From positions 96,001 to 160,000 of the forward strand of contig CAYSCM010000001.1 in the NCBI GenBank assembly GCA_964429815.1: DNA of 64,000 nucleotides. The letters are read 5' to 3'. The position numbers were made by a program, and so were the translations under genes. Of this stretch, positions 10,101 to 51,548 are shown in pieces. Source of the DNA: an uncultured Candidatus Saccharibacteria bacterium. Lineage in GTDB: Bacteria; Patescibacteriota; Minisyncoccia; Phycocordibacterales; CAYSCM01. Every line of letters begins with the position of its first letter. The first letter of the stretch is position 1. The notes under the pieces were generated by a model. It was not told the origin of the DNA, did no database searches, and saw only the letters and a list, made by a program, of their open reading frames with translations.

Positions 10101-10704
10101 CCGGCTGGGCTCCGCCTGAGACCATGATGGTTCCTGCTGTGGTGCCTGTGCCGCCGGTCGTGCCGGTGCCGCCGGTCGTGCCGGTCGTGCATGCGGCGTT
10201 CACAGCTGCGCGGGTCTTAGGACCGAAGTAGCCGGCCGCCGGAGCTATCCCGTTGGCGGTCTGGTACTTGCCGAGCGCTGCTGCCGTTTTGCTGCCGAAG
10301 TAGGTGGACTCATTGCCGGGAGAACCCGAACCCGATGCTGCAACCTGAGTCGCCGCTTTCGAGTTTAGGAACTGCTGAAGGGCCTTAACATCCGCTCCCG
10401 AGGAACCGACGGTGAGGCTGCGAGACCAGGTGTACGGGCAGACAGCGGCGCCTGAGGTAGTCGTGCCGCCGGTCGTGCCGCCCGTGGTCGGGAGACCAAG
10501 AAGCGAAGCGTTGACATTGTTGATCGTCGCTTGGTCGGCCCCGAAGGACTGGAGGAGCGAGAGGATTGACTGGATCTGGCTCTGCGTAAGTGCCGCTGCC
10601 TGTGCAGGCGAGGTCACGAACGAGAAGAGCGCGATAGCCATCCCGACAGCAACTGCAACCGCCGCAATTTTCATCACGGCTTTGTTTGTAATGCTGGAAT
10701 TCAT
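7183..10704 (-). CDS. very large secreted cell-surface protein with a peptidoglycan-binding (PG_binding_1-like) domain and Thr/Gly linkers
   Basis: Signal peptide (MKIAAVAVAVGMAIALFSFVTSPAQA). PG-binding-like module (…GADVKALQQFLN…YFGSKTAAALGKYQTANGIAPAAGYFGPKTRAAVNAAC). TTGGTGTTGGTGTTAGT linkers. About 1000 aa of Thr/Ser/Gly/Val-rich beta-strand repeats. Start could be 10674 or 10704. Confidence 0.7.
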   Translation of the reverse strand: MNSSITNKAVMKIAAVAVAVGMAIALFSFVTSPAQAAALTQSQIQSILSLLQSFGADQATINNVNASLLGLPTTGGTTGGTTTSGAAVCPYTWSRSLTVGSSGADVKALQQFLNSKAATQVAASGSGSPGNESTYFGSKTAAALGKYQTANGIAPAAGYFGPKTRAAVNAACTTGTTGGTGTTGGTGTTAGTIMVSGGAQPANSLAPTSAVRVPFTNFTITNNSGAPVTVNGVTVQRTGLAADAAFASVVLVDSNGLQIGNTQTFDSNHNATVGGTFTVPAGTSNYTIAGNMGSSLGSYAGQVAAISVVAVNTTATVSGALPITGAANTVNGTLSLGSVTTAISSLDPNAATTKNIGATAVRFTGVRFTAGSAEDLKLFSIRFRINGSASISDVGNLVAVINGTNYPTVVSADGRYVTSSFPGGILVQKGFSIDVVLQGDLTGNNSAGRIAEFDVDKTSDVYFVGQLYGYGVAMAAGSGTVSTASTHATTYTSGQPVFQGSTVTINAGTVTTIQNATSVASQNIPVNVPNTVLGGFVTNFAGEPVTVSGMKFNVTSTGTTSVSEITSVSIVDQNGAVVAGPVDASASIVNFTSSVTFPVGSRTYTLKGKIPSTGWPSGSTVVLNTTPSSWTSPTGQVTGNSITISTTNFTMNTMTVRTLALGVTAAATPASQNVVAGSQNVLFSNIQLDAASSSEDVRLSSLVVRESGTGAVGNLSGCQLFDGATPLNTGSNTLNTVAAGANTITLDNAITIAKGTVKTLGLQCNLSSAATAATTYIFGVNSGDTITYTGVQSGNSLTVLPTTGNSGTLTVSSSASVTLNVDPSSPSYAINAAGTTGVTVGVFRIRSANESFNLIKLGLTAAASSLGKTGAGNTSTAAGDLTQLYIYSGSTLLGTATLTGANTIATSTLISPFTVTRDTDIPLTIKADIAGISVSAPTGVGDLIEVDPSSFEGTGASSGQTVKGSGSSTTAGVRFFKSYPTLSLDSLPSSGVADGRLMRFKVTANSAGPVGVAKFAFSFATTSMNISNVSLYGFTDSSYSQAISGQGTGGQVGATIATPTQGATQVFQPTPNAVQVPSGQTYYFELRGTVTGTATTYSAVTTLKSDTAYQTNLTSGFQVATSGIATSSSNFVWAGNSTTTASLWDGTNGTVDFSNGYSIPGLPSAGLIQARSN

Positions 10705-11406
10705 AACGTAATGGTTACTGTTAATGCCCGTGTGAACGGGCGATTCGCGAGACTCACAGGAGTCGACCCCATGAAGCGCGCGAGGAGTGACCTTTGCATG
10801 AAGTGCTTTCGGCACTCGGTCACGGTTGATAATCACTTTTGTACTATTTCCCTACCCCCGTGGTATCGACCCGGAAGCTAGAGAACTAGTGGCGAAGAGA
10901 GGTGGTTGTTCTGTATGTATTCAGCCGAGGAGGAATAAAGAGTTGCGGTAAACTGAAGCACGAGGGCAGAGCCCTCATTTTTTGAAGAAACGAGTTTTTC
11001 GGTATATGAAATTGTCAACGTCCTTCCGTGCACCCCGGTTCATTTTCCTCAAAAGTTCTGAAATAACTCAGTTAATTCCAAGAAAAACACACTCCCAGAG
11101 CTCCGCCTATTATAGACGCGCTACTTTTGCGCATCAAAACGGACAATGTGGATAACTAACGCCAAAAAAGCCCACAGATTGGTCTTTTTTGGCCGTTTTC
11201 CACGCAGCGCGGAGCATACACAAGAAGACGGCACCGGTCAATGAACATTTCCTCTAAAAAATGGCGCAATACTTGGATACGATGTCAATTTTTAGGCAGG
11301 TTTAGGTTCCTTTGAGAGCTTAAGGCCTTCGGGGACCCTAAAGGGTGGAAGGAGGGGCGCACAAGGTGAAAATGTGGCAACTTAAAAATGTGATAACTCT
11401 GGTAAC

Positions 11407-18856: not shown

Positions 18857-19639
18857 CTAGAAGCCGAAAACCCTCGCCACGTTTTCGCGCAAGGTCGTGG
18901 AAACGCTTTGAAGCGGCTCCCCGCGAAGTTCTGCGATTTTTTTTACGGTCTCGACGACGAAGCTCGGTTCGTTGCGTTTCCCGCGGTGCGGCAACGGTGC
19001 GGCAAAGGGAGCGTCAGTTTCAGCCATTATCATGGAAAGCGGAACTTCTCGTATCGCAGCGTCATAGTCGCGCGCGAACGTGATGACGCCCGGGAACGAT
19101 ACGGTAAAACCGAGCTCGTTGTATCGTTTGGCGATCACCGCGGAACTTGTGAAGAAATGGATGTTGCCGCGAAGGCCGTCTCCCGCTTCCTTTTTGTACT
19201 CACCGAGGAGACAGAGCATTTCCTCATGCGCGCTGCGACAGTGGACCATGAGCGGCTTATCGTGTTTGAGGGCAAAATCGATTTGTCTTCGCAGCTCTCT
19301 CTCCTGCCGCGCGCGCTCTTGTTCATCGACTCCGTCCCTCCGATAGAAATCGAGGCCGCACTCCCCTATCGCCACCACCTTACTCTCCGAGACGAGGACT
19401 CCAAACTCTGTTGGGTCGAATCCCTCCGTCGCGTTGTCCGCGGGATGTAACCCGACCGCGGCCCACACCCCCGGCGAGAGCTTCGCGAGCTCAACGGCAC
19501 GACGCGAACTCTCGAGGTCGACACCGACGGTTATGGTCGAAACATCCGCATCCCGCATACGGGAGAGAACCTTCTCACGGTCACGCTCAAACTCCTTGAA
19601 GGAGACGTGCGAGTGTATGTCGACAAAGCGCGTACTCAT
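18857..19639 (-). CDS. tatD: TatD-family metal-dependent hydrolase/DNase
   Basis: MSTRFVDIHSHVS… (HxH), …AIGECGLDFYR…, …HCRSAHEE…, …AETDAPF…. Confidence 0.88.
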   Translation of the reverse strand: MSTRFVDIHSHVSFKEFERDREKVLSRMRDADVSTITVGVDLESSRRAVELAKLSPGVWAAVGLHPADNATEGFDPTEFGVLVSESKVVAIGECGLDFYRRDGVDEQERARQERELRRQIDFALKHDKPLMVHCRSAHEEMLCLLGEYKKEAGDGLRGNIHFFTSSAVIAKRYNELGFTVSFPGVITFARDYDAAIREVPLSMIMAETDAPFAAPLPHRGKRNEPSFVVETVKKIAELRGEPLQSVSTTLRENVARVFGF

Positions 19640-21072
19640 TCTTTTCGTACAAAAAGTGCCCCGGGATTTCTACCTTCGAGGAGCGCATCCTCGACGGTCT
19701 TCGCGATTTTCGGCAGAAACGGTCGCAGCAAGACCGCGATTTCCCCCAGTTCTTCGAGAAGGTAGCGTAGGTGTTCTCGCGCTTTTTCCGGCTCGGTTTT
19801 GATGAGCTTGAACGGCCCAGTATCTTGAATATAGGCGTCAAGCTCACCGATTCGTCCGAAAAGACGGTCGAGCACCCGATTAACCTCAAGCTGCTCGAGA
19901 TGCTCACGATAGTCGTTCTCGACGGAGAGGATCTCCTCGCCTGAGGGGAGCCGGGAAAGTTTTACGCCGAGCGTTGCAGCCATCGTGAGCGTGCGCGACA
20001 CCAAATTTCCCAGCCCGTTTGCCAGGTTGGCGTTGTACGCTTCTTTAAACCCCTCTCGTGTAATATCGCCATCTTCAAAGGGAGATACGTGGCGCAGGAG
20101 GTAATAACGAACCGCTTCCGCGCCATACTCGGAGATAAGCTCCTGCGGGTCGATGACGTTACCGAGCGTTTTGCTCATCTTCTTGCCGCCCGACGTGATA
20201 AAACCGTGCACGAGGATGCGCTTTGGGAGTAAAAGCCCCGCAGAGAGGAGCATCGCGGGCCAGATGGCCGCGTGGAAACGCAGAATATCCTTGCCGATGA
20301 CGTGAAGGTCTGCTGGCCACCATGTCGCGAATGTCTTCTCATCGCGCCCGTAGCCGATCGCGGTTATGTAGTTGGAAAGCGCATCGCACCACACGTACAT
20401 ACGCTGAGAGGCATCGCCGGGCACGGGAATACCGATGGAGACTTTGGAGCTTGGGCGCGAAAAACTTACGTCAGAAAGTCCCTTCGAGAGAAGAGCAAGT
20501 ATCTCCCCCCGACGAGAGGCGGGTATTATTTCGAGCTCGTTGGATTCAATAAGGTCTTTAATGCGGCCGCTATAGCGAGAGAGCCTGAAAAAATAGTTTT
20601 CTTCTGAAAGTCTCTCCGGAGCCGTGCCATGGTCGGGACATTTGCCGTCGACGAGATCCTTTTCCGTGATGAACGCCTCGTGTCCCACGCAGTAGAGGCC
20701 TTCGTAGGAAGCTCGGTAGATATCTCCCGCTTCGAGGAGCTTTCTCCAGAGCGCTTGCGCCCCGGGGTAATGGATATTCTCGTCGCTCGTGCGAATGAAC
20801 TGGTCATACGAGCTCTCGAGAGAGGAAAACAGGGACATAAAGTTCCCGACGATGCCATCAAGAAACGGCTTCACCTCCTGCCCCGCTTCTCTGGCGGCGC
20901 GTACCACTTTTTCAGTGTTTTCATCAGAGCCAGTGAGGAGATAGGTCTCATCCCCCATGAGCCGGTGATAGCGCGCGAGTGCATCTGCAAGCACCGTCGT
21001 GTATGCGTGCCCGAGATGAAGCTTTGCGTTGGGATAGAAGATCGGCGTTGTTATGTAGAATTTCTTCGCCAT
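19636..21072 (-). CDS. metG: methionyl-tRNA synthetase (short, no C-terminal tRNA-binding extension)
   Basis: HIGH motif (HLGHAYTT), KMSKT (KMSKS-type) motif, and the …WCDALSNY… MetRS core. Confidence 0.93.
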   Translation of the reverse strand: MAKKFYITTPIFYPNAKLHLGHAYTTVLADALARYHRLMGDETYLLTGSDENTEKVVRAAREAGQEVKPFLDGIVGNFMSLFSSLESSYDQFIRTSDENIHYPGAQALWRKLLEAGDIYRASYEGLYCVGHEAFITEKDLVDGKCPDHGTAPERLSEENYFFRLSRYSGRIKDLIESNELEIIPASRRGEILALLSKGLSDVSFSRPSSKVSIGIPVPGDASQRMYVWCDALSNYITAIGYGRDEKTFATWWPADLHVIGKDILRFHAAIWPAMLLSAGLLLPKRILVHGFITSGGKKMSKTLGNVIDPQELISEYGAEAVRYYLLRHVSPFEDGDITREGFKEAYNANLANGLGNLVSRTLTMAATLGVKLSRLPSGEEILSVENDYREHLEQLEVNRVLDRLFGRIGELDAYIQDTGPFKLIKTEPEKAREHLRYLLEELGEIAVLLRPFLPKIAKTVEDALLEGRNPGALFVRKE

Positions 21073-21118
21073 GACAAAAGACTATGGGCTTTTACGCGCC
21101 GATGCAACCTGCTTTCGA

Positions 21119-22195
21119 TCAGGCCCGGTACGGTTGGTGGTGATGGAGCTTGTCGAGCTCGACGTCTTTTTTCTTCTGTATGTCGCTCACGAATTCCTGA
21201 AGGGCCGCCGCGATGGGAACGGAGAGGAGCACCCCGAGGAACCCGGCGAGCTCTCCGCCGATGAGGAGCGCGAGGATTACCAGAAGCGGCGGGACCCCGA
21301 CGACCTTGCGCACGACGAGCGGATAGATGAGATGGCTCTCGAACTGCTGCACGATGAGGTAGAGACCCGCGGTGAGAAGAGCATGTGTGACTCCGCCGGA
21401 GACTCCCGCTATCGCGATGCCCGGGATGGCGCCAATGATGGGGCCGAAGATCGGAATGAGCTCGCAGATCGCCGAAATGACTGCCAGCGCGAGCGCATAC
21501 TTCACATCAAGAATGGTGAGGCCAAGGTAGACGAATACCGCGACGATGAGAGCGAGGATTATCTGCCCTTGCATCCAGCGGCCGATCTTGCGCTGGGAGC
21601 GACGCCAGAGATCTATGACGTAGTCCTGGTGCTCGACCGGCGTCACGACCCGCAGGAAATCATCGATGCCAGTCTCTTGGACCGCGAAGTAGAACGAAAA
21701 GACGATGATGAGGATGAACGAGAAGACGCCGCCGAAAAAGCCGGATACGGTGCGTATGAAGCCACCGGAGAGATTAGACAGCGAATCCTGCACGTTCTTG
21801 ATGATGTCAGGAAGCGATAGAGACTGGGCAACCGCATGCGATTGAGCTATGGCCTGCGAGGGCAAAACTGAGGAAAGATCGAAGGTATCTATGAGGTGCG
21901 GCACGAAACTGAGGAAATTGAGAAAGTCGCCGAGGACCGCCGGAACGAAGAGATAGAAAACACCGAAGATGATGGCCAGGACGATGAGGTAGACGAGGAG
22001 TACTGAGAAAACCCGAGGGATTTTGTAGCGCATGAACCAGTGCGCCGCCGGTTCTATCGACGAAGCAAGAACGATGGAGGTTAGAACGATGAGGACGAGG
22101 TTTCTCAGATAAAAGAGCGCGGCAATAAGGAGCAGGAGGAGAATGGTTCGCAGGACGGTCCCAAACGATATAGAGACGGAGATGTGCTTTTCCAT
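21119..22195 (-). CDS. AI-2E family (PerM/UPF0118) transporter
   Basis: 8 TM helices with the family-typical …IIGAIPGIAIAGVSGG…LIVQQFESHLIYPLVVRKVVGVPPLLVILALLIGGELAGFLGVLLSVP…. Start at MEKHIS. Confidence 0.7.
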   Translation of the reverse strand: MEKHISVSISFGTVLRTILLLLLIAALFYLRNLVLIVLTSIVLASSIEPAAHWFMRYKIPRVFSVLLVYLIVLAIIFGVFYLFVPAVLGDFLNFLSFVPHLIDTFDLSSVLPSQAIAQSHAVAQSLSLPDIIKNVQDSLSNLSGGFIRTVSGFFGGVFSFILIIVFSFYFAVQETGIDDFLRVVTPVEHQDYVIDLWRRSQRKIGRWMQGQIILALIVAVFVYLGLTILDVKYALALAVISAICELIPIFGPIIGAIPGIAIAGVSGGVTHALLTAGLYLIVQQFESHLIYPLVVRKVVGVPPLLVILALLIGGELAGFLGVLLSVPIAAALQEFVSDIQKKKDVELDKLHHHQPYRA

Positions 22196-22217
22196 TCCTC
22201 CTATAGTACCACTTCCG

Positions 22218-23516
22218 CTAACGCGGCAGCGTTTTCCCGAGCGAATCCGTGGAAGTGCGGGTCTGGGCGCCCGAGTCACGCTCTCGCACCGTGACGGTAC
22301 CGTCTTCAAGCGTCTGAAAGTCCACGGTGACACAGGAGGGGGTCCCTATTTCGTCCTGTCGGCGGTAGCGCTTCCCAATGTTGCCATTATCATCCCAGAG
22401 AATTTGCGGAATGTCTTTCTTGAGCGTATCGAAAATTTCGCGTGCGCGTCGGACAAGCTCCGGCTTATTTTTGAGAAGTGGAAAGACCGCAGCTTTTACC
22501 GGCGCAACGGAAGGTTTGAGCGCCAGGTAGACGCGCTTCTCCCCTCCGAGCTCGTCCTCGCGATAGGCACTGGAGAGAACCGCAAGCACCGTGCGACCGA
22601 GCCCGAAGGTGGGCTCGATGACGTGAGGCATAAAGCGTTCTTTCGTTTCTTCGTCGAGGAAGGTGAGGTCGACGCCGCTTTCGGCTTGGTGGTTTTTTAG
22701 GTCGTAGTCGGTTCGGTACGCAAGCCCGTAGAGTTCTTTACGGCCAAAAGGAAAATCGAACTCAAAGTCGATGGTGCGCTTGCTGTAGTGTGCGCGATCC
22801 CCGGGCGCGACCTCGAGCTCATGGACCTTCCCCGTGTCAATGCCGACTCCCTCCATCCACGACCACATTTCCGTGCGCCAGTATTCAAAGTGCTTCTCCC
22901 ACTCGCTCTCGCGTATAAAATACTCGAATTCCATTAGGTCGAACTCACGAACACGGAACAAAAAGTCGCGCGGCGCTATTTCGTTGCGAAACGCTCTTCC
23001 GGCCTGCGCAATACCAAAGGGGAGCTTCGGGTGGAACGAGTCTATGACGTTCTTGAAATTGACGAACATGCCCTGCGCTATCTCGCCGCGCAGGTAGCCG
23101 CGGCCCCCCGTTCCTGCTGCTCCCATATCGACCGGAAAGAGGAGGTTAAACATCTTGCTCTCCTCGAGCGAGCCGTCGCACTCCGGACATTTTTTAGGAT
23201 CTGCGAGTTGGTCGGCACGGAAGCGACGTTTACACTTCTTGCACTCGACCATCGGGTCGGCAAAACCCGCGAGGTGTCCGCTCGCCTTCCACACAGCCTC
23301 AGGCATGATGACACTGCTGTCGAGGCCATACATGTCCTGTCGACCCTCGACGAAGCGGCGCCACCAGAGATTCTCGATATTTTTCTTAAGCGCGACGCCA
23401 AGCGGCCCGTAGTCCCAGGTTCCGGAGAGCCCGCCGTAGATTTCTGAACCTTGATAAACAAAACCGCGGCGTTTGCTGAGAGATACTATCTTCTCCAAGA
23501 GGTCGTGGTCGGCCAT
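22218..23516 (-). CDS. glyQS: glycyl-tRNA synthetase, class II dimeric (archaeal/eukaryal-like) type
   Basis: …RRGFVYQGSEIYGGLSGTWDYGPLGV…, class II motif 2 region (…FGIAQAGRAFRNEIAPRDFLFRVREFDLMEFEYF…), C-terminal anticodon-binding domain. Start at MADHDLL. Confidence 0.9.
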   Translation of the reverse strand: MADHDLLEKIVSLSKRRGFVYQGSEIYGGLSGTWDYGPLGVALKKNIENLWWRRFVEGRQDMYGLDSSVIMPEAVWKASGHLAGFADPMVECKKCKRRFRADQLADPKKCPECDGSLEESKMFNLLFPVDMGAAGTGGRGYLRGEIAQGMFVNFKNVIDSFHPKLPFGIAQAGRAFRNEIAPRDFLFRVREFDLMEFEYFIRESEWEKHFEYWRTEMWSWMEGVGIDTGKVHELEVAPGDRAHYSKRTIDFEFDFPFGRKELYGLAYRTDYDLKNHQAESGVDLTFLDEETKERFMPHVIEPTFGLGRTVLAVLSSAYREDELGGEKRVYLALKPSVAPVKAAVFPLLKNKPELVRRAREIFDTLKKDIPQILWDDNGNIGKRYRRQDEIGTPSCVTVDFQTLEDGTVTVRERDSGAQTRTSTDSLGKTLPR

Positions 23517-23520
23517 AGTC

Positions 23521-25386
23521 TTATGGTTGTACCACTCCTGCCGCTCCCGAACCACCTGCGCCTTGCGTTGTGAGGGCGGAAGCGGTTGCCGAGACGTTCG
23601 AGCCCGTGAAGCGGTCGACACCCGAGAGAGACTGCTCCCCTACCAGGGTCGGCATCGAGCCGACCTGACTGCTACTTGGCGTGAAGGAGATATCGAACAC
23701 CGCCTGCTGCAGTGCGCTACCCGCGGCGAGATTATCGATCTGCCATGTCACCATACCTCCTACCTGACTGTAGGAAACGGCACTACTGCCGCTGCCGACG
23801 TACGCAACGTACGAAGGAAGAGCGGCGGTGACACGCGCATCCCCGACCTGGTTTGCGGAATTTTTCGCGATGAGCGTTACGCGATAGCGGCTTTCCGTGT
23901 TCGCTTTGGGTAAAGCAGGACCGGAGAGCATCGAGATGGATGAGGTAAGCGAGAGATCTGAGGATATTTTGACCATGCGGGTGAGCGAAGCCTCGACGCT
24001 CTCCGGGACATTTTGCTCCGAGAGCCGGCTCCCCTGTGCGGAGACCGAAAGCTTTATCTGCGGATTACGTAGCCCCCCGGAGAGAACGACGGGGGAGAAA
24101 CTGAACGAGAAGTGCCCTGATTGGCCAGGCGCGATAGAGACAAGCTCCGCGCTCGTGTCGCGGTTCCAGAGGATGGTATTGTCCGAGCTTCGATAAAAGC
24201 CCTCCTCCGAGATGATGCTCCCCGGATTGAGCCCGGCACCGGAGAACGAGAGCGCTATTTGCCCGTCGGTAATGGGCACAGTGAGGTTGTTGTTCCAAGT
24301 GAGGTCGCCGCGGATCATCGCTCCCGGGGTGGCGACGTAAGGATCGCTCGAAGCGCCATTGAGTGCGAGGTCTATCGATATGAACGGCTTCTTGACCGTG
24401 ACCGATTGGGAAACATCCGTGAAAGCCGCTTTCAACGAGCGCTCATCGGTATCGCTCTGAAGCCCCGCCTGGAAACGGAACAGGCGCTCTTCGCTATCCT
24501 GCCCCTGGAGAACACCAGTGAGTGTCACGCTTTTTTTATCCCCAGGCGTCAGCGTCCCAAGGTTCCATACCGTGCTGCCGTAGGTCGCCCGTGGAGAGGC
24601 GGAGGTGAATGTGAAGCCGAAGGGGTAGGTGGCGTTGAGGAGGACGTTCTGAAGTGGCGTCTGTGAGTTGCTCGTCACATCAACCGTGAAAGAGAGAGCT
24701 TGGCCCGAGACCGTTTCCGTCGGGGCTTTGACCGTAATGGAGAGCGGTGAGGACGAGAGGAGAACAGGATATACCACGTCCTTGTAGAAGATGGCGTTGC
24801 TTCCCTCGACACGATACTCGACCGTGATCTTAATGTCTTTCTCTGAGCGCTCCTGTCCGAAGAGGACGGCATGAATGGTCTTTTGAGCGCTCCCTCCCGG
24901 AGCGATATCCCCTATCGAGAGCCGGTCGCGCGAGAGTTCGACCCCGATATTCCCTGAGGTACGCGTACCGTCCGGGTACTCGACGATGAGGTCCGCGAGC
25001 TGGATGGGTGTCGCGTTGGCGTTCCTCACGCTCACCTGGAGGGTGAGCTCATCGCCGCCGGAAATTGTGGTGGGTCCGGCAATATCGATGGCCAAGTTTT
25101 GGGCCGAGACTACGTTACCGCCGCGCAGATAGAAGAACGCACCGAAGGCGACCGCGAGAGCGAAGAACGCCACCGATAGGATGAGGACGGTAGCGGGACG
25201 GAAATAACGTGAACGCTCCGCACGGGAAATGACGTCGGCGACCGGGGCCGAGAGGTCCGTGTGGCTCCACGTGCGCGGCGTAGACTCGTCATGTTGGTAG
25301 AGCACTCGCCGCTCACGGGTGAGCTGCGGCTCCTCACGCGAGTAGAGCTTCTTCTTGAGCTTATCGATGCTTCCCTCGGGCTCCAT
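23521..25386 (-). CDS. membrane-anchored surface protein with repeated beta-sandwich (CARDB/DUF11-like) modules
   Basis: Cytoplasmic N-tail, one TM helix, then ~530 aa of Ser/Thr-rich beta-rich repeats (…LSITVKAPTETVSGQALSFTVDVTSNSQTPLQNVLLNATYP…). Confidence 0.55.
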   Translation of the reverse strand: MEPEGSIDKLKKKLYSREEPQLTRERRVLYQHDESTPRTWSHTDLSAPVADVISRAERSRYFRPATVLILSVAFFALAVAFGAFFYLRGGNVVSAQNLAIDIAGPTTISGGDELTLQVSVRNANATPIQLADLIVEYPDGTRTSGNIGVELSRDRLSIGDIAPGGSAQKTIHAVLFGQERSEKDIKITVEYRVEGSNAIFYKDVVYPVLLSSSPLSITVKAPTETVSGQALSFTVDVTSNSQTPLQNVLLNATYPFGFTFTSASPRATYGSTVWNLGTLTPGDKKSVTLTGVLQGQDSEERLFRFQAGLQSDTDERSLKAAFTDVSQSVTVKKPFISIDLALNGASSDPYVATPGAMIRGDLTWNNNLTVPITDGQIALSFSGAGLNPGSIISEEGFYRSSDNTILWNRDTSAELVSIAPGQSGHFSFSFSPVVLSGGLRNPQIKLSVSAQGSRLSEQNVPESVEASLTRMVKISSDLSLTSSISMLSGPALPKANTESRYRVTLIAKNSANQVGDARVTAALPSYVAYVGSGSSAVSYSQVGGMVTWQIDNLAAGSALQQAVFDISFTPSSSQVGSMPTLVGEQSLSGVDRFTGSNVSATASALTTQGAGGSGAAGVVQP

Positions 25387-25407
25387 TTCAAACAGTATAT
25401 CGCGATT

Positions 25408-25998
25408 TCAAAGCTGCGTTTGGGCAAGGACTTCGTTGACGAGCTTCACCGCAGCAGGACGATCAGGGATGAACTCCCGACAAAGCCCTCGCTCGAGTAC
25501 GCCTGTGAGATAGCGCTGCCACTGCGGTTTCGGAAGACGATAGCCAAGCTCGGAGAACACGCGTAGTACGAGGATGCTCTCAAAGGCTTTGAGCTCCTCC
25601 AGCTCAAGGGGAAGGTCTGGAAGAAGGGTGAATGCGTCGACGATAGTGTCGAAAAGGGGCGTATTTTGTTCCTCGCCAGCGACGAGACGACCAAGAAGGC
25701 GCATCACGCTAGCGACGAGACGCATTTTGTCAGGAAAGTCCTTGAGGCTTCGGTAGAGGCTCAGCTCGGCGGACGCGCCCCGAACTCTCCAGACGCCGCG
25801 CCCGCGCACGAGCGTTACATCAATGAGCGAGAACGGTTCGAGTGCAAAGCGCAGCTTCGAGCGTGCCTCGCGCACGCTCGCGCCGACGGCACGTAGGAGA
25901 CCGCACTCACGAGTGAAAAGCTCTACGAGGCGATCTGATTCGCGCAGCGGATGCGCACGCAGGACGAGCGCGCGTGTTTGGATCGCAAGGACGGCCAT
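25408..25998 (-). CDS. recO: DNA repair protein RecO (short form)
   Basis: N-terminal OB fold (…RALVLRAHPLRESDRLVELFTRECGLLRAVGASVREARSKLRFALEPFSL…). The C-terminal domain lacks an obvious Zn finger. Confidence 0.7.
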   Translation of the reverse strand: MAVLAIQTRALVLRAHPLRESDRLVELFTRECGLLRAVGASVREARSKLRFALEPFSLIDVTLVRGRGVWRVRGASAELSLYRSLKDFPDKMRLVASVMRLLGRLVAGEEQNTPLFDTIVDAFTLLPDLPLELEELKAFESILVLRVFSELGYRLPKPQWQRYLTGVLERGLCREFIPDRPAAVKLVNEVLAQTQL

Positions 25999-25999
25999 A

Positions 26000-28900
26000 T
26001 CAAAGTTTCGCTATCGCGATGTACACCGCTCCTGCGTCGAGTTCCACCGTATCTCCTGCGATGTCGGGCTCGAAGCGCACGTCCATGGCCCCGGTCTCGA
26101 GCTTAAGCTGGGAGAGGTACTCTTCGACGAGGTTTCGTCCGGGGGAATCCGCCCGCACGTTGATGAGGATGCGATCATTGGGTTTGAGGGCGAGTTCCTT
26201 GCGGGAATCCTGGATGGCGCGTACAAGTTCGCGAAAATCGCCTTCCCGCATAAGTTCCTTCGTGAGCGTGGTGTCGAGAGAAACGGGTTCCAAAAGCTTC
26301 TGGTCAACGAGGAATTTTTTGACATTAAGTTCTTCCTCAATAATGGAAAAAAACTCTGCGGGAATACGTTCCCGAGCGGTGAGTGAGGAGAGCGGTTGAC
26401 GCACCCGAATACCCACTTTCGCACGAGCCTCGAGACCGGCAGTCACGACGTCGCGAACCTCCTTCATCTGAGCAAGGAGCGTGAAATCGACATCGCCTGC
26501 CTTTGGCCATTCGAGAAGATGAACACTCTCCCCCTGCGCACCTACCGCAAGATGAATCTCTTCCGCAATGAAAGGCATGAGCGGGGCGACGAGCTTTGCG
26601 ACGATCGAGAGCGCCTCGCGTTGTCCTGCAAGCGCAAAGCGCTTGTCCGCCGCGTCAGTGCCTTTCACGCGCTCCCGAGAGCGGCGCAGGTACCACGTCG
26701 AATAGTCCTCGATAAACGCTCGTAGACTCCGACAGGCGCGCGGCGTATCGTAGCGCTCAAACGCGTCTGCCACTTCAGCCGTCGTCTCGTCGAGGCGCGC
26801 AAACATCCAGCGGTCGAGAATGTTGCGGCTTTGCCGAGCGTTCGTGGTGCGGTCGTCCTCTTTCCCGTACAGCTCGTAGAACTTGAGACAGTTCCGTAGC
26901 ATACCAACGACGCGATTATGGATGTCGCGCACGTCCTCGTCGCGGAATTGAATGTCTTCCGATTGCATGACGACGGAGCCCATGAGGTAGAAACGATACG
27001 CGTCAGCGCCGTAGCGATCGAGGAGCGTGAGCGGATCGGTGTAGTTGCCTTTCGACTTGCTCATTTTGTTGCCGTCCGCGGCCAGGATGTTCCCCGTCGA
27101 GACGACGTTTTTGAAGGAGGTACGCCCAAAGAGCGCGACCGCGACCGCGTGCATGTAGTAAAACCACGTGCGTGTCTGCGCGATGTACTCGGCGATAAAA
27201 TCGGCTGGGTAGCCACGGCGTCGACGCAAGAATCCGCTGCGTGGCTCGAAATGCGGGAGAGCGGAGCCGAGGTAGTGACTCTGGGCGAACGGCATCGAGC
27301 CGCTTTCGACCCAGCAGTCTATGACCTCGGGAATGCGCTCATACTCGCGTCCTTCCGCGTCGAGGAGCGTTAGGGTGTCGGTGTAGGGCCTGTGGAGGTC
27401 TATTTCGAACGCCTCATCGTGCGGCAGCGGCTTGAACGCAAAGACCTTAAACTCCGCGTTGTCGAGCCAGACGGCATCAAAACGGCCGACCTCGGAAGCG
27501 GTACGCGGTATAGAATTGCCGTGCACGAGCGCGTGAAGCTCTCGCAACGGCGATTCGTGCGAGACGATAAGGATGTTCTTCTTCGCGTAGCGTTGGTCGA
27601 CGTCGTAGATGAAGCGCCCTACCCGTACTCGTACATCGGTATAGTTTTCGCCGCCATCCGGCCGCTTCACGTACGCGACAGAAAATTCCCCGTAGAATTG
27701 GTGGTACGCCGAGACAGGTTTGCCGTCAAAAGTGCCTACGTTCACTTCGCTAAGGCGCTCATCGTAGATGATGTCGTTGGGAGAAATTCCCCACTGCTTC
27801 GCAAGAAGCTCCGCACTCTCTCGCGCACGCACGACGGGAGAAGCGAAGATGACGTCGGGCTTGTCGATGCGCGTACCTGCCTCACGGACCTGGAGCTCGC
27901 CGAGTTTCGTAAGATGATTATCCGCATCGGGGCGCGAGCTCACGAATCCCTCTTCGTTGCTCTTAGCCTGCCCATGGCGCATGATCGTGTAGCGATTCCC
28001 CGAGCCCTTTGCTCTTTCGCGAAGCTCGGCAAGAGAACCGATGACCAGTACGCGGGAACCCCCTTTCTCTTTCCAAATAGGAAGCGGCGATGCCCAGTAG
28101 CGATTGCGCGAGATGGTCCAATCGGGCGCGCTCTCGAGGATGTTCTTGAAGCGGCCGCGCTTCAGGTGCTCGGGAACCCAGGTTATCGTTTCGTTTTCGG
28201 AGAGCATCCTCTTCTTTATCTTTTGGATATTGATGAACCATGACGACACGGCGTTGTAGATGAGCGGCGTTCCGCAGCGGTAGCAGTGCGGGTAGGAGTG
28301 CGTATGCTGCTCCCGCGCGAAGAGGAGGCCACGTTTGTCGAGATCCGCCTTGATGTCTCCCTCGGCCTCCTTTATATAGCGCCCGTGGAGAAATTCCGGC
28401 ACGAGCTCGTTGTAGGCCGCCGATGGCGAGAGAAGCTGTATCATCGGGAGCCCCTCTTTCTGCCCTAGCGCAAAGTCATCCTCGCCGTACATGACGGCAG
28501 TATGGACGATCCCGGTCCCCTCCTTGGTCGAGACAAAATCAGCCGCGAGCACTTCGTGATGCTTCCCTGGGTGAGAGACGACCGGTGCCACCGCGTAGAG
28601 CGGCTCGTAGGTTATGCCGACGAGCTCGCTGCCTTTAAAGTCGCGCTCGGTGGAGTACGTCCGGCCGAGCGGAGCGAATGTTTTGTCGACGAGGTTTTTC
28701 GCGATGAGGTAGTGGGATCCTCCCGTCTCGGTAAAATTGAGTCCCTCCATCTCTTTCTTGCCTCGGTAGACCAGGCTGTAGTCGATGTCGGGCCCGACCG
28801 CAAGCGCGACGTTCCCCGGAAGCGTCCAGGGCGTCGTCGTCCACGCGAGGAGGTAGGTGTTCTCCGGAAGATTGTACGCGGTCGCGTTTGTTATTCTAAA

Positions 28901-29545
28901 GCGTACCGTTACCGCCTCCTCCGTGATGTCCTTGTAGGTGTGGTCCATCGCGATCTCAGCCTTAGCGAGCGGTGTTTCGCAGTGCGGACAGTACATGAGG
29001 ACACGCTTACCTTCGTAGAGAAGGCCTTTCCCGTTCATTTCCGAGAGCGCCCACCAAACGCTCTCGATGTAGTCGTTGTCCATCGTCTTGTAGGCGTCCT
29101 TGAACTCGACCCAGCGTCCGATGCGGTCCACGTAGCGCTCCCAATCGCTCGCGAACTGGAGCACGGAGGCACGCGCTTCGGCATTAAACTTAGCGACCCC
29201 TATTCTTTCAATGTCTTTCTTCGTTTTGAGGCCGAGCTTCTGCTCGATGAGCGTCTCGATAGGCAGCCCGTGGCAATCCCACCCCCACTGTCGAAGTACG
29301 CGGTAGCCGCGCATGGTCTTGTAGCGCGGGAATACATCTTTGACGACCGACGAGAGGAGGGATCCGTGGTGCGGAAGCCCGGTGGCGAACGGAGGGCCGT
29401 CATAGAAAATAAATTCCCCGCGGGGGGCGTCTTTTCCTTCGGATTTCTTGAAAATGCCGCGCTCTTTCCAGTATGCCAACACCTTCTCTTCCCGCGCCGC
29501 AGTATCGCTCTTTGCGGATTCGTGAGCCTTCATTGAGAGCTTCAT
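26000..29545 (-). CDS. ileS: isoleucyl-tRNA synthetase (type-2-like) with an inserted histidine-phosphatase (PGAM-like) domain
   Basis: HIGH region (…PPFATGLPHHGS…), CP1 editing domain (…WTTTPWTLPGNVALAV…), WTISRNRYWASPLPIW, KMSKSKGN, anticodon-binding domain. Between …VIGSLAELRERAKGSGN and DLHRPYTDTLTLLD…IPEVIDCWVESGSMP lies a ~200-aa block (approx. nt 27400-28000) with RHG (TIMRHGQAKSN) and SH (ILIVSHESPLREL) signatures of the histidine phosphatase superfamily. Start at 29545 or 29533. Confidence 0.9.
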   Translation of the reverse strand: MKLSMKAHESAKSDTAAREEKVLAYWKERGIFKKSEGKDAPRGEFIFYDGPPFATGLPHHGSLLSSVVKDVFPRYKTMRGYRVLRQWGWDCHGLPIETLIEQKLGLKTKKDIERIGVAKFNAEARASVLQFASDWERYVDRIGRWVEFKDAYKTMDNDYIESVWWALSEMNGKGLLYEGKRVLMYCPHCETPLAKAEIAMDHTYKDITEEAVTVRFRITNATAYNLPENTYLLAWTTTPWTLPGNVALAVGPDIDYSLVYRGKKEMEGLNFTETGGSHYLIAKNLVDKTFAPLGRTYSTERDFKGSELVGITYEPLYAVAPVVSHPGKHHEVLAADFVSTKEGTGIVHTAVMYGEDDFALGQKEGLPMIQLLSPSAAYNELVPEFLHGRYIKEAEGDIKADLDKRGLLFAREQHTHSYPHCYRCGTPLIYNAVSSWFINIQKIKKRMLSENETITWVPEHLKRGRFKNILESAPDWTISRNRYWASPLPIWKEKGGSRVLVIGSLAELRERAKGSGNRYTIMRHGQAKSNEEGFVSSRPDADNHLTKLGELQVREAGTRIDKPDVIFASPVVRARESAELLAKQWGISPNDIIYDERLSEVNVGTFDGKPVSAYHQFYGEFSVAYVKRPDGGENYTDVRVRVGRFIYDVDQRYAKKNILIVSHESPLRELHALVHGNSIPRTASEVGRFDAVWLDNAEFKVFAFKPLPHDEAFEIDLHRPYTDTLTLLDAEGREYERIPEVIDCWVESGSMPFAQSHYLGSALPHFEPRSGFLRRRRGYPADFIAEYIAQTRTWFYYMHAVAVALFGRTSFKNVVSTGNILAADGNKMSKSKGNYTDPLTLLDRYGADAYRFYLMGSVVMQSEDIQFRDEDVRDIHNRVVGMLRNCLKFYELYGKEDDRTTNARQSRNILDRWMFARLDETTAEVADAFERYDTPRACRSLRAFIEDYSTWYLRRSRERVKGTDAADKRFALAGQREALSIVAKLVAPLMPFIAEEIHLAVGAQGESVHLLEWPKAGDVDFTLLAQMKEVRDVVTAGLEARAKVGIRVRQPLSSLTARERIPAEFFSIIEEELNVKKFLVDQKLLEPVSLDTTLTKELMREGDFRELVRAIQDSRKELALKPNDRILINVRADSPGRNLVEEYLSQLKLETGAMDVRFEPDIAGDTVELDAGAVYIAIAKL

Positions 29546-29564
29546 TCTAGCCGCAATACGTGAA

Positions 29565-29597
29565 AGAAAAAAGCCGCCCCAGGGGTGCGGCGGCTTG
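29565..29597 (-). terminator. rho-independent terminator-like hairpin upstream of ileS
   Basis: AAGCCGCC…GGCGGCTT stem followed by a T-run on the minus strand, about 20 nt before the ileS start. Confidence 0.45.
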
Positions 29598-29629
29598 CGG
29601 GCCGACACTAGGGTGCCGGCCCGGGGACT

Positions 29630-29914
29630 CTAGGCAGATTCGGTGTAGGGGAGGCGAAGATCGAGATGGCCGTGATCGATGCAGCCCTGCCAACGAGCAA
29701 GCGCCGAGAAGCGCTCGCGAGTTTCGCGGTCCGCGTCATCAATGCCGGAGACCGGTATGGTACGCGCAACGCGCCTACCACAGGGAGTCGAAAGAACTTG
29801 TTTGCGCAGGATGCGGCTGGGGTTCAGTACGGCACGCAGCATGCGCTCGAGGTCGGCCGGGCTTTTAGCGTCGTTTTGGTAAAAAGACTCGGTCATGGGA
29901 ACCTCATATCGCAA
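29630..29914 (-). CDS. hypothetical protein (94 aa)
   Basis: ORF between argS and ileS; no motif recognised. Confidence 0.35.
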   Translation of the reverse strand: MRYEVPMTESFYQNDAKSPADLERMLRAVLNPSRILRKQVLSTPCGRRVARTIPVSGIDDADRETRERFSALARWQGCIDHGHLDLRLPYTESA

Positions 29915-30023
29915 GCTACTGTTCGCCCCAGGCTATCAGAAACGCCATGAACCGTTCGTGAACCGTCTCACGAATAAAGACCCTACGTGCAGCAAGGTTT
30001 CAACGTGACAGCAATGAACACCG

Positions 30024-31694
30024 CTACATTTTTTCAGGTGCGACGATGCCGAGGAGCCAGAGCCCATTTTTCATCGTCTGGGCGAAGGCCCCCGTGAGTG
30101 AGAGCTTGTACGCTGCGTAGTCCTTATCGTCAACGATGCGCTCAGCTGCGTAGAAACTATTGAAAGCTCCCGCAATTTGCGTGAGGTAGGTCGTAAGATA
30201 GTGCGGCTCATACTCCGCTGTAGCGCGCGCGACGACTTCCGGGAATCTATAGAGGAGCCGTTCGAGCTCGTAGGACTTGGCGGGAGGATTCTCACTATCA
30301 GCTTCCACCCCCATCTCGTGCGCCTTCGCGATGACCGAAGCCGCCCGAGTATGCGCATATTGAATGTATGGCCCCGAGTCTCCCTCGAGCGACACGGACT
30401 TCTCCGGGTCGAACACGATATCCTTCCCTGTTCCCTGCCGCAGGATGGAGTACTTGATCGCCGCAACGGCGACATCGGCCGAAAGGGTCCCTTCCATCGA
30501 GCGGGTTTCCTTCATGCGCTCCCGCACAAGGACCTCCACATCCTCGATGAGCGATTCGCCGCTCACGATGTTGCCTTTGCGCGAGGACATCTTGCCGGAG
30601 GAGAAACGCATCATGCCGTGCGCGATGTGCCGGATTTTGTCGGCGATATCGGGAAAAATCTTGCGCATTGCGGCGATGACAACCTTGAAGTATTCCGCTT
30701 GTTCGGAGGCGGTGACGGTGATTGAGATATCTGAAGACCACGTTTTTTCCTTAAGTTTGGCGAGGCCGAGCTCTTTCGCTTCGTACGTCGGAAAGCCATC
30801 CCTGGTGAGAAATACGCGCGTGTGGAGGGCGTGGCGCTCCCCGCGAAATACCGTCGCTCCGTCGCTTTTTTCAAAGACATCCGGCCGGCTCTCCACAATC
30901 GTCCTGCCGACCGAGCCCGTCTCGCTCTCAAAAAAGAAATAGTCGAACCGTGTACCGAGTTTACGGTAAATTTCGTCGAAATGATCCAGGGATGTTTTTT
31001 TTCCTGCCTCGTAGAGCGCGCTTATTTTTGCATCACTCTTTTCGTAGATTTTACGATTTATAGCGACGATTTCCTCCCTGGCCCCCGCATCACGTTCGTA
31101 AGCTTCTGAACCCGCCACATAAGCTTTGCCTAGGTCTTCTATGCTCGAAGCGTCGAGGTCATGCTTTTGTAATGCCCAGATCGCCTTCGCCACATGCGGC
31201 CCCACATCGCCCTGGTAGTTGGCGCGATTTATCGTCGCACCGGAGAATTCGATGATGCGAGAAAGCGATTCCCCGATCGCGTTGCTCATGAGATGCCCGA
31301 TATGAAAAACCTTGAAGGGGTTAGGCTGCGTGTACTCCACCATCACCCGCTTGTCCTTAAGGGCTTCGCTGCGTCCGAAGCGCTCGCCCTCATCGGCAAT
31401 AAGCCCGATTGATTCTGCAAAAAAAGTTCGCGACAAATGGACGTTTATGAAGCCTGGCCCCGCACTGTCGATACTCTCTATAAAGGGATGATTCTGTTTC
31501 GCGAGATTTCCTCGAAGCACCTGGGCCACCTCGTGCGGCGCCTGTCCGGTCGTCTTCCCGAGCACGAGGGCAATGTTGCTCGCAAAATCCCCATGAGAGA
31601 GGTCGCTTGGATGCTCGAGCGTAAAAGAAATAGCCGGAAATTTCGCGCTTGTGCGCGCCTCCTCGAAAGCTTGTATGAGCTTTTCTCTGACCAT
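30024..31694 (-). CDS. argS: arginyl-tRNA synthetase
   Basis: N-terminal Add-1 domain, HIGH-like (…FHIGHLMSNAIG…), MSSR (KMSKS-equivalent …GKMSSRKGN…), DALR anticodon-binding C-terminus. Confidence 0.92.
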   Translation of the reverse strand: MVREKLIQAFEEARTSAKFPAISFTLEHPSDLSHGDFASNIALVLGKTTGQAPHEVAQVLRGNLAKQNHPFIESIDSAGPGFINVHLSRTFFAESIGLIADEGERFGRSEALKDKRVMVEYTQPNPFKVFHIGHLMSNAIGESLSRIIEFSGATINRANYQGDVGPHVAKAIWALQKHDLDASSIEDLGKAYVAGSEAYERDAGAREEIVAINRKIYEKSDAKISALYEAGKKTSLDHFDEIYRKLGTRFDYFFFESETGSVGRTIVESRPDVFEKSDGATVFRGERHALHTRVFLTRDGFPTYEAKELGLAKLKEKTWSSDISITVTASEQAEYFKVVIAAMRKIFPDIADKIRHIAHGMMRFSSGKMSSRKGNIVSGESLIEDVEVLVRERMKETRSMEGTLSADVAVAAIKYSILRQGTGKDIVFDPEKSVSLEGDSGPYIQYAHTRAASVIAKAHEMGVEADSENPPAKSYELERLLYRFPEVVARATAEYEPHYLTTYLTQIAGAFNSFYAAERIVDDKDYAAYKLSLTGAFAQTMKNGLWLLGIVAPEKM

Positions 31695-46119: not shown

Positions 46120-46193
46120 GGGGTGCCTACCCGGATTTGAACCGGGGATAACAGAGCCACAATCTGTTGTGTTACCACTACACTATAGGCACC
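46120..46193 (-). tRNA. tRNA-His (anticodon GTG)
   Basis: Folds as a cloverleaf with G-1, 7-bp acceptor GTGCCTA/TAGGCAC, anticodon stem ACAGA/TCTGT with loop TTGTGGC, T-arm CCCGG-TTCAAAT-CCGGG. Confidence 0.85.
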
Positions 46194-46214
46194 ATCCTTT
46201 GATTATCACTCCTG

Positions 46215-46772
46215 TTAGCGATAATCGGGAGCGTCCTCTTTTATAGCAGATTGTCTGTTCGTTAGTCGAGCGAGCGCAAAGAGGATAGAAGAAAGGCGGT
46301 TGAGGAACGCCCTCGTGTGTTCGCCAACGGAGCGCTCTCCCTCATCGGCGACCGCAATGACCTTGCGTTCCGTCCGACGCGCCATGGCGCGCGCAGTATC
46401 GAAGAGCGCGGAGAGTTCCGTTCCTCCCGCGATGGAAAAAGTCGTGATGGGCGGCAATTCCTTTTCGATAGTATCGACTAGCTTCTCGATTGCCGTTACC
46501 TTGTTTTTCTCGATGGTCTTTTCCGCGCCCGCAACTTCCGCTTGCACGATGAAAAGATTCTTCTGGAGCCCGTGGACGATGTCGATGAATGGTATGCCGT
46601 GAAGTTCCCGCTTTTCCGCCTTGGCGCGCATTTTAACGACGCCGAGAAACGAATTGACCTCATCAAGAGAGCCGAGAGCTTCACTGATAGCCGAGGCTTT
46701 GGAAATGCGCTTACCCGGCTCCTCCTTGAGCGTTTTCATGGTGCCGTTGTCACCTTTGCCGGTATAGAGCAT
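46215..46772 (-). CDS. PduO-type ATP:cob(I)alamin adenosyltransferase-family protein (PF01923-like)
   Basis: N-terminal MLYTGKGDNGTM… and …ISEALGSLDEVNSFLGVV… match the PduO/MMAB family signature. ATG at 46770-46772. Confidence 0.75.
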   Translation of the reverse strand: MLYTGKGDNGTMKTLKEEPGKRISKASAISEALGSLDEVNSFLGVVKMRAKAEKRELHGIPFIDIVHGLQKNLFIVQAEVAGAEKTIEKNKVTAIEKLVDTIEKELPPITTFSIAGGTELSALFDTARAMARRTERKVIAVADEGERSVGEHTRAFLNRLSSILFALARLTNRQSAIKEDAPDYR

Positions 46773-46869
46773 ACGGGCAGTATACATAGGCAGTGCATTT
46801 GTGCCATTGATTGCCGATTTGTGCCGCTGTGGTAGTCTCGCGACAGACACCGTACAGAGGAGGAGTTGC

Positions 46870-47559: not shown

Positions 47560-47628
47560 TCCCGTTCGCCACAAGCGAGCGGGTTTTCTATTTGTAGAAA
47601 TGGAAAAAATCATTATGATGTGCTGTAC

Positions 47629-47715
47629 GCGCGGGTGGCGAAATTGGCAGACGCACTACCTTGAGGTGGTAGCGCCCTTACGGGCATGGAGGTTCAAGTC
47701 CTCTCCCGCGCACCA
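47629..47715 (+). tRNA. tRNA-Leu (anticodon GAG), CCA encoded
   Basis: Acceptor GCGCGGG/CCCGCGC, anticodon stem CTACC/GGTAG with loop TTGAGGT, long variable arm (GCCC-ttac-GGGC), T-loop TTCAAGT, 3' CCA. Confidence 0.88.
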
Positions 47716-47749
47716 AAACAAGAACGCCTTTGAGAAAAGGCGTTCTTGT

Positions 47750-48208: not shown

Positions 48209-48247
48209 AACGTCGCCCACTCTAGCACGGTGGGATACGCCCCGCAA

Positions 48248-51525: not shown

Positions 51526-51548
51526 AAGGCATCGCCACTCTAGCAACC

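Follow-up and report, generated by a model that had tools for sequence, protein, structure and literature searches.

We analyzed a 64,000-nucleotide stretch of DNA (positions 96,001 to 160,000 of contig CAYSCM010000001.1, assembly GCA_964429815.1; hereafter the window) and found that its ileS gene, which encodes isoleucyl-tRNA synthetase (IleRS), carries a histidine phosphatase domain nested in-frame within the synthetase. The host protein is a type-2 IleRS, the domain belongs to branch 1 of the histidine phosphatase superfamily, and related bacteria encode the same phosphatase either at the same site or as a separate gene between argS and ileS. We lean towards the view that the product is bifunctional, an IleRS-phosphomonoesterase in which a housekeeping type-2 IleRS is joined to a phosphatase of the PhoE/CobC/PspA type whose activity is tied to tRNA charging. 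A preliminary description of this DNA knew of no aminoacyl-tRNA synthetase (aaRS) of this kind. In agreement with it, full-text literature searches did not turn up any account of an aaRS that harbors a histidine phosphatase.

The gene occupies one uninterrupted reading frame on the minus strand, within an open reading frame (ORF) that starts with GTG and spans 26000-29608. Residues are numbered throughout from the methionine of the likely start codon, the ATG at 29545; gene callers also chose the ATG at 29533. A public protein (P0001/P0128) is 100% identical to the product. Pfam recognized tRNA-synt_1 in two stretches (1.3e-113), Anticodon_1, tRNA-synt_1g and DUF5915, and placed His_Phos_1 between the two tRNA-synt_1 stretches; the N-terminal part of the synthetase carries tRNA-synt_1 over residues 21-512 and a HIGH-type motif, PHHGS, at residue 58. 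The whole protein scored as an ileS equivalog (NCBIfam TIGR00392, 797 bits against a cut-off of 621), and in an alignment of 58 IleRS the KMSKSK motif and the HIGH region were invariant. A predicted model of the full-length protein (predicted local distance difference test, pLDDT, 85.2; predicted template modeling score, pTM, 0.75) retrieved with Foldseek the IleRS2 of P. megaterium (8c8v), yeast IleRS (8wnd) and T. thermophilus IleRS (1ile), ahead of the type-1 structures 8c9e and 1qu2. The equivalog score, the HIGH-type and KMSKS motifs, the connective peptide (CP) 1 editing domain, the anticodon-binding domain and the closest structures thus all identify the host as a type-2 IleRS, as had been proposed from the sequence. 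Judging from this conservation, it would activate isoleucine and charge tRNAIle.

To delimit the insert, we took 397 residues surrounding the site and aligned them with every sequence in the PDB. The N-terminal part aligns with residues ~402-491 of solved IleRS, and the two flanks, which are separated here by an entire domain, lie only ~5-6 residues apart in the solved structures (491|497 in human cytoplasmic IleRS, 478|485 in P. megaterium IleRS2 and ~480|485 in T. thermophilus). IleRS from the Candidate Phyla Radiation (CPR) that have no insert hold 3-12 residues at the same site. Other IleRS are therefore short here, as the preliminary description had said (with a figure of about 10-15 residues), and the long spacing is not a normal feature of the enzyme. 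The module of ~200 aa that it had outlined is also present, but is closer to 187 aa and encoded on the minus strand: the segment KPLPHDEAFEI before DLHRPY is native IleRS, matching 'TKPLPEPFDPHRPY' of T. thermophilus, and the insert therefore comprises residues 518-704. The DLHRPY motif itself is invariant or nearly so across the family.

For the domain boundaries of IleRS we followed the names used in PMC7191050 and PMC7955072. CP3, which covers residues 459-526 in yeast IleRS (PMC7955072) and 473-534 in C. albicans IleRS (PMC7191050), is a peripheral connective-peptide subdomain whose topology varies among IleRS and which bears a zinc motif in T. thermophilus (PMC7191050). The insertion junction maps to yeast residues ~492-498, which places the insert within CP3; it is nested in the tip loop of this peripheral subdomain and not in the Rossmann core proper. 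The earlier assignment to the catalytic core is to be corrected accordingly. Just upstream of the insert runs the CP2-CP3 linker (ARDWNVSRNRYWG), which in yeast IleRS lines the pocket for tRNA A76 (PMC7955072). A second clan of CPR IleRS has the insert flanked by CxxC...CxxC. We dropped an argument for a single insertion event, drawn from an 'LPxN' linker after the insert, as that motif is native to IleRS (TKPLPEP in T. thermophilus).

The insert matched the His_Phos_1 model (PF00300) with E=4.8e-29 and 101.8 bits, against a cut-off of 21.7, over profile positions 3-163 of 194, in keeping with the in-frame histidine phosphatase first noted. Modeled alone with AlphaFold2 from an alignment of 34 relatives, it reached a pLDDT of 96.9 and a pTM of 0.93, and its residues kept a pLDDT of 90-97 inside the full-length model. 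The structural check suggested in the preliminary description thus had a favorable outcome: the excised domain is predicted to be an autonomous histidine-phosphatase fold. Foldseek searches with the insert returned only histidine phosphatases at the top (probability 1.00, template modeling (TM) score 0.7-0.8, 20-26% identity), including the riboflavin-pathway HFP (9mmh), PspA (4ij5/4ij6), PhoE (1h2e), glucosyl-3-phosphoglycerate phosphatase (GpgP, 4pz9) and CobC (6nru). Searching the PDB sequences with a profile likewise gave PspA (1.3e-26), PhoE (9e-26) and CobC (6e-22).

The active site is retained along with the fold. The RHG and downstream SH signatures that had been picked out from the sequence correspond to residues 523-525 and 662-663. 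The 58 aligned IleRS show no variation at H524, R573 and E600 and at least 90% conservation at R523 and H663. With minor conservative exceptions, the pattern R-H-[G/A]-x-R-E-R-H occurs in all 118 complete inserted copies and in all 43 stand-alone ones. By model score, catalytic residues and fold, the insert belongs to branch 1 of the histidine phosphatase superfamily, and the preserved residues suggest that it is apparently a catalytically competent phosphatase.

Assigning the domain to a characterized family was less successful. Its NCBIfam scores, with cut-offs, were 73.8/225 for dPGM_arch, 71/326 for RNase H/acid phosphatase, 68.1/162.9 for CobC (TIGR03162), 55/350 for PspA, 32.4/74.5 for SixA and 34.9/316 for PRK01295. 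We rejected an identity as cofactor-dependent phosphoglycerate mutase (dPGM) on the basis of these scores and of length (~187 aa, against ~230-250 aa for dPGM), and identities as CobC, PspA or SixA because the respective cut-offs were not reached. An intein or another self-splicing or mobile insertion was likewise discarded: a Pfam scan of the whole protein gave no intein or endonuclease family, and the inserted segment makes up an entire enzyme domain whose active-site residues are conserved. The PADLOC defense library had no match for the insert or for the whole protein, and the stand-alone form matched it only at chance level (E=0.0027).

The nested form is widespread. All 120 listed homologues contain PF00300 (52-64% identity, besides the 100% identical P0001); their named sources include Kaiserbacteria, Adlerbacteria, Paceibacterota, Minisyncoccia and the Parcubacteria group, and the insert measures 192-208 aa in homologous proteins. 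We also surveyed one genome per GTDB species, in which 314 loci encode a relative, and examined the best 80 of these 314. The insert was contiguous in all 80, at a GC content of 32-62%, with Kaiser-, Adler-, Nomura- and Campbellbacteria among the named genomes. The nested architecture is present in hundreds of independent assemblies, and the search of other CPR ileS genes that had been proposed as a check bears out the insertion. In public records, many of the nested proteins are called 'class I tRNA ligase family protein', 'isoleucyl-tRNA synthetase' or 'hypothetical protein'. The host of the window is a Parcubacteria (Paceibacteria, CPR) bacterium. Many metagenome-assembled genomes titled 'uncultured Candidatus Saccharibacteria bacterium' (L004, L006, L007 and others) share the nested Parcubacteria-type IleRS and its synteny, and that label is probably generic.

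These data bear on the simplest objection, namely that the insert results from an assembly chimera or a wrongly called ORF, or that it is a catalytically dead domain left as an inert structural spacer. The metagenome-type assembly from which the window comes lends it some substance. A chimera is untenable, however, because the insert is conserved in other CPR ileS genes, and the same architecture recurs in the 80 species genomes as well as in the wider set of assemblies. Composition is flat across the insert, with no break in GC content or skew, and the frame is single and uninterrupted. Moreover, the catalytic residues are strictly kept while the rest of the domain diverges, the insert averaging 36% identity across homologues and the remainder of the protein 62%. 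We regard this objection as effectively refuted.

The closest homologues of the insert are stand-alone proteins of 186-205 aa (P0121-P0126, P0161, P0202 and others), which share 35-41% identity with this insert and ~45% with other inserted copies. Searching a set of 5.8 billion proteins with the insert alone recovered only seven stand-alone proteins (179-199 aa, 30-41% identity); owing to the limits of its word index, this search did not reach the IleRS copies. Named stand-alone examples come mostly from Candidatus Staskawiczbacteria, and a profile search found 746 such proteins at E<=1e-20. The stand-alone proteins bear an 'SSWPEKFxNPLT' motif that is absent from the insert of this lineage.

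The genomic setting of these genes was informative. Two of the first three contigs had the order argS-phosphatase-ileS, and the third, L003, differed. A metagenome scan with the stand-alone alignment yielded 80 loci, 42 stand-alone and 38 nested. In 25 of the 25 stand-alone loci with adequate flanks, argS lies directly upstream of the phosphatase and ileS directly downstream; shorter contigs agree where sequence exists, and the gap between argS and the phosphatase has a median of 9 nt by tblastn ends. At the stand-alone loci other than L001 and L002, ileS is continuous, encodes 918-969 aa and has no insert at CP3. No separate phosphatase gene was found between argS and ileS in the best 80 loci of the inserted genomes, nor any second phosphatase copy in the 64-kb window. 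The argS-phosphatase-ileS order, set beside a nested ileS that follows argS, means that the stand-alone and nested phosphatases are two alternatives for one chromosomal position. The distinction drawn in the preliminary description, a domain insertion and not a neighboring gene, is thus correct for this genome, but in sister lineages the same phosphatase is exactly such a neighbor between argS and ileS.

Three loci depart from the common pattern. At L039, the nested copy is accompanied by a second, divergent His_Phos ORF close by, which falls outside the other copies in the domain tree. The lone stand-alone pattern with K at the position of the second Arg (RHGDKERH) is probably this ORF, the patterns not being tied to loci. 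At L002 (L002:2869-5556), a contig with the order argS-phosphatase-ileS, ileS is broken by one in-frame TAA exactly at the CP3 loop that holds the insert in other genomes, with an ATG two codons later; ~50 conserved core residues are missing, KLSNS replaces KMSKS, and no clear ribosome-binding site precedes the ATG. The gene may be split or may have become a pseudogene, or the sequence may contain an error. At L001, the argS upstream of the stand-alone phosphatase (L001:3641-5001) is frameshifted and has no HIGH region, and the downstream IleRS is of a different subtype (PPTANGKPGLHH). An alternative genetic code in L001 and L002, suggested by their fragmented argS and ileS calls, was considered and rejected, as the stop in the L002 ileS is TAA and not TGA, and the L001 argS is frameshifted or deleted.

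We examined the history of the two states with a neighbor-joining tree of IleRS cores, from which the insert had been removed (100 bootstraps). The tree contains two clans (100%), with nested and stand-alone states interspersed in both and only 49-81% support at key nodes. The nested copies of the metagenome set are nearer to the stand-alone proteins (45% identity) than to the nested copies of this lineage (33%), in a set biased by its retrieval with a stand-alone query. More than one transition between the nested and stand-alone states is likely. Nesting in ileS would hard-wire both the co-expression of the phosphatase with the synthetase and its proximity to it.

The same module occurs in further architectures. 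We searched 1.84 billion representatives exhaustively with a profile, obtained 541 matches at E<=1e-30 and parsed the best 150 of these with our own hidden Markov models and Pfam. Within these 150, alongside stand-alone proteins and IleRS with a single insert, the IleRS P0164, P0179 and P0235 have two copies flanking the DLHK strand, and P0151, P0240, P0177, P0212 and P0154 have copies following DCWFESGSMP[FY]A and immediately ahead of the anticodon-binding domain. In the double-copy IleRS P0151, P0240, P0177, P0212, P0154, P0164 and P0179, both copies have kept their catalytic residues. P0132 is a valyl-tRNA synthetase (ValRS; 6e-70 to 1gax, against 2e-31 for IleRS) with four His_Phos_1 copies, one after the QWF motif and three in tandem after SRQIWWGHRIPVWY, a site topologically equivalent to CP3; a contig end cuts the protein. 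The domain is also found at the C terminus of an arginyl-tRNA synthetase (ArgRS; P0275, 689 aa) and of a TsaC protein of the Sua5/YciO/YrdC family (P0201, 387 aa), both with catalytic residues kept. The nucleophile His, both Arg, the Glu and the second His are retained throughout these architectures, except in a degenerate copy in P0225 and the contig-truncated fourth copy of P0132. P0247, a 1066-aa IleRS fragment, combines an IS200-like Y1 transposase (340-461), the phosphatase (680-854) and a GNAT domain (935-1063), all in-frame, and may be a chimeric ORF call. Besides the Y1_Tnp and GNAT of P0247, the fusion partners among the best 150 were only aaRS and TsaC.

How might such a domain work? 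The mechanism of the histidine phosphatase superfamily, which proceeds through a phospho-histidine, is established. By analogy, H524 would attack a phosphomonoester to form a phospho-histidine intermediate, with R523, R573 and H663 holding the phosphoryl group; E600 would protonate the leaving group, and water would then free the phosphate. Hydrolysis of a misactivated aminoacyl-adenylate, one of the roles first suggested for the insert, is chemically unlikely for a phosphomonoesterase fold, and we set it aside because the phosphate of the adenylate is doubly substituted and the fold acts on terminal phosphoryl groups.

Because the phosphatase is in fixed association with ileS and argS and has repeatedly been nested in, or fused to, tRNA-linked adenylate-forming enzymes, we favor a bifunctional protein in which its activity serves tRNA charging, and infer that this coupling goes beyond co-expression. 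Among possible substrates, we would place a 2'/3'-phosphate on tRNA ends or nucleotides first, its removal reconditioning unchargeable ends, ahead of the clearance of AMP or pyrophosphate (PPi), and that ahead of phosphoprotein or antimetabolite detoxification. Several points weigh against this coupled reading. The associations with ArgRS and IleRS are explicable by gene adjacency, and nesting is no proof of mechanistic coupling. Several intact copies per polypeptide fit no single-substrate model in any obvious way. The insert lies below every NCBIfam equivalog cut-off and therefore represents a distinct subfamily, to which no function can be transferred from characterized enzymes. A broader proposal, which is possible but doubtful, is that the phosphatase is an integral, unrecognized part of translation in a large CPR branch, repeatedly nested in class-Ia synthetases (IleRS and ValRS), fused to ArgRS and TsaC, and having as its substrate either a phosphorylated tRNA end or a side product of the adenylate-forming reaction.

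The main rival holds that a metabolic phosphatase has merely hitch-hiked: an ordinary small-molecule enzyme, for example of nucleotide salvage or of phospho-amino-acid or phospho-sugar turnover in a reduced genome, would have been fused by adjacency and would share only expression with the synthetase. The nearest structures and profiles, all of them small-molecule phosphatases (HFP 9mmh, PspA, PhoE, GpgP and CobC), fit this picture, as do the ancestral look of the separate gene and the structurally variable, permissive nature of CP3. CPR genomes are also compact, and gene fusions are common in them. What such a model does not lead one to expect is the choice of partners: the same subfamily is nested at several IleRS sites and in ValRS and is fused to ArgRS and TsaC, its partners in the 150 parsed matches are confined to those named above, and stand-alone copies nearly always adjoin argS and ileS (25 of 25, L003 being the one exception). 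We consider hitch-hiking somewhat unlikely.

The idea of a tRNA-end phosphatase, also raised in the preliminary description, is a live candidate and a concrete version of the coupled model. In this scenario, which taken singly is unlikely, the domain would restore chargeability by stripping tRNA of a 3'(2')-phosphate or, where the CCA end is pyrophosphorylated, of the terminal phosphate there; such ends could be left by metal-independent ribotoxins or by tRNA-pyrophosphorylating toxins. ToxSAS enzymes block charging in just this manner, by pyrophosphorylating the tRNA 3' end. All four partners (IleRS, ValRS, ArgRS and TsaC/YrdC) act in tRNA metabolism, and the linker upstream of the insertion lines the A76 pocket in the yeast enzyme. 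On the other hand, the stand-alone form has no evident RNA-binding extension, PADLOC gave no match, and we know of no tRNA 3'-phosphatase with a histidine-phosphatase fold.

The shared chemistry of the partners suggests product clearance instead, since IleRS, ValRS, ArgRS and TsaC all turn ATP into AMP and PPi. Either product could be hydrolyzed in cis, pulling activation forward where cytosolic PPi is high or pyrophosphatase weak, and several copies per chain would simply raise the local activity. We find this improbable. Branch-1 histidine phosphatases are phosphomonoesterases or mutases, with no dedicated pyrophosphatase known to us among them; hydrolysis of AMP would be wasteful for a nucleotide-salvaging organism; and, as the free-standing form demonstrates, the phosphatase need not be held close to the synthetase.

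Least favored among the functional alternatives, and quite improbable in our view, is a built-in protein phosphatase or detoxifier, which would reverse an inhibitory phosphorylation of the synthetase or inactivate a phosphorylated antimetabolite directed at aaRS. HipA-type kinases, which target class-I aaRS, offer a parallel for the former. Some superfamily members are protein or phospho-histidine phosphatases, and SixA is a weak NCBIfam match of the insert. Regarding detoxification, the IleRS P0247 holds both a phosphatase and a GNAT, and NCBIfam has an 'ileS_w_GNAT' model; GNATs detoxify aaRS-targeting warheads, giving a parallel in GNAT immunity against 'Trojan-horse' inhibitors (bioRxiv 10.64898/2025.12.02.691738). 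Yet the conserved neighborhood contains no kinase or toxin gene, PADLOC was negative, and the closest relatives are small-molecule enzymes. We also know of no phosphorylated inhibitor of IleRS.

The features of the locus are collected in Table 1. Synteny of argS and ileS was found in 60 of the 80 genome loci, with the conserved order argS-ileS-recO-DUF11. In the window, the spacer between argS and ileS (29546-30023) measures 478 nt and is where sister lineages place the phosphatase gene; its only ORF, of 94 aa (29630-29914, minus strand), has no similarity to the phosphatase profile. The minus-strand region 19636-31694 is rich in aaRS genes, with an AI-2E transporter, a DUF11 protein and recO in between. 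Elsewhere in the window are a bacterial 23S rRNA at 1-692 on the minus strand (5' 604 model positions, running off the window end), five tRNA genes within 46122-55538, and a 1217-aa ORF (7183-10836, minus strand) whose sole Pfam match is PG_binding_1 (9.5e-8).

Table 1 Features of the ileS locus and its surroundings, in window coordinates
Feature	Position	Strand	Remarks
ileS, type-2 IleRS with nested phosphatase	26000..29545	minus	1181 aa from the likely start, ATG 29545
IleRS N-terminal part	27995..29545	minus	First Rossmann half, CP core, CP1 editing domain, CP2, WTISRNRYW linker and first CP3 half, to ...GSLAELRERAKGSGN
Nested His_Phos_1 domain	27434..27994	minus	Residues 518-704, 187 aa (561 bp), PF00300
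RHG motif	27971..27979	minus	R523, H524 (predicted phospho-accepting nucleophile), G525
R573, second phosphate-binding Arg	27827..27829	minus	SPxxR motif; invariant
E600, predicted general acid	27746..27748	minus	DERLxE motif; invariant in inserted copies
H663, second catalytic His	27557..27559	minus	ILIVSH motif (SH = 662-663); H in all 161 complete copies
Native CP3 resumes (KPLPHDEAFEI-DLHRPY)	27383..27433	minus	Aligns to T. thermophilus IleRS 'TKPLPEPFDPHRPY'
IleRS C-terminal part	26000..27382	minus	Rest of CP3, second Rossmann half (DCWVESG), anticodon-binding domain, DUF5915 (Pfam)
KMSKS	27053-27067	minus	Second half of the Rossmann fold
argS	30024..31694	minus	Pfam Arg_tRNA_synt_N, tRNA-synt_1d, DALR_1; directly upstream of ileS, co-directional
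recO-like gene	25408..25998	minus	Pfam RecO_N; directly downstream of ileS
Class-II synthetase	22218-23621	minus	tRNA-synt_2b and HGTP_anticodon
metG	19636-21072	minus	

Aminoacyl-tRNA synthetases are among the most conserved enzymes, and additions to them are usually meaningful, serving editing, tRNA binding or signaling. Here, a second, seemingly active center of unrelated chemistry has been kept in IleRS across a large group of Parcubacteria. Its recurrence in ValRS, ArgRS and TsaC, together with a fixed operon partner when unfused, constitutes a 'Rosetta-stone' signal of an unexplained functional link, and provides a testable handle on an uncharted step in the tRNA or nucleotide metabolism of bacteria that are not culturable alone. 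If the domain acts on tRNA ends or on by-products of charging, it would represent a new auxiliary charging step and a new accessory active site in aaRS besides editing. If it is purely metabolic, it would be a clean natural example of the nesting of an adjacent gene's domain into a permissive CP3 loop, still useful for protein engineering and for the annotation of CPR genomes.

Several known systems resemble parts of this arrangement, and none of them places a histidine phosphatase inside an aaRS. The free-standing phosphatases PhoE, CobC, PspA (iPSP), GpgP and HFP share the fold (TM 0.7-0.8), a length of ~190-210 aa without the dPGM extensions, and the RHG...R...E...H set; the insert is only 20-26% identical to them, is nested, falls below the NCBIfam cut-offs and forms a subfamily of its own that is bound to the argS/ileS position. 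The separately encoded phosphatases of Staskawiczbacteria and other Parcubacteria come closer, spanning the same length between the first and last strands and sharing the argS...ileS neighborhood, but they are genes in their own right and the IleRS downstream of them has no insert. That a His_Phos_1 domain can be joined to an unrelated enzyme is known from the Rv2228c-type RNase H/acid phosphatase (NF005567, the second-best NCBIfam match of the insert at 71 against 326 bits) and from PFK-2/FBPase-2; both are end-to-end fusions, not nested, and neither has an aaRS partner. The proteins of NCBIfam NF040702, 'ileS_w_GNAT', are likewise IleRS with an extra catalytic domain and show that the enzyme can accommodate one, but the inserted fold and chemistry differ, and our protein is not a member (313 against 1999 bits). 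Finally, the CP1 editing domain of IleRS, ValRS and LeuRS and the INS domain of ProRS are also hydrolytic domains nested in a connective-peptide loop of a class-I Rossmann fold, giving two active sites per chain. CP1 is ancient and universal and acts on mischarged tRNA, whereas the phosphatase is lineage-specific, has an unrelated fold and resides in CP3.

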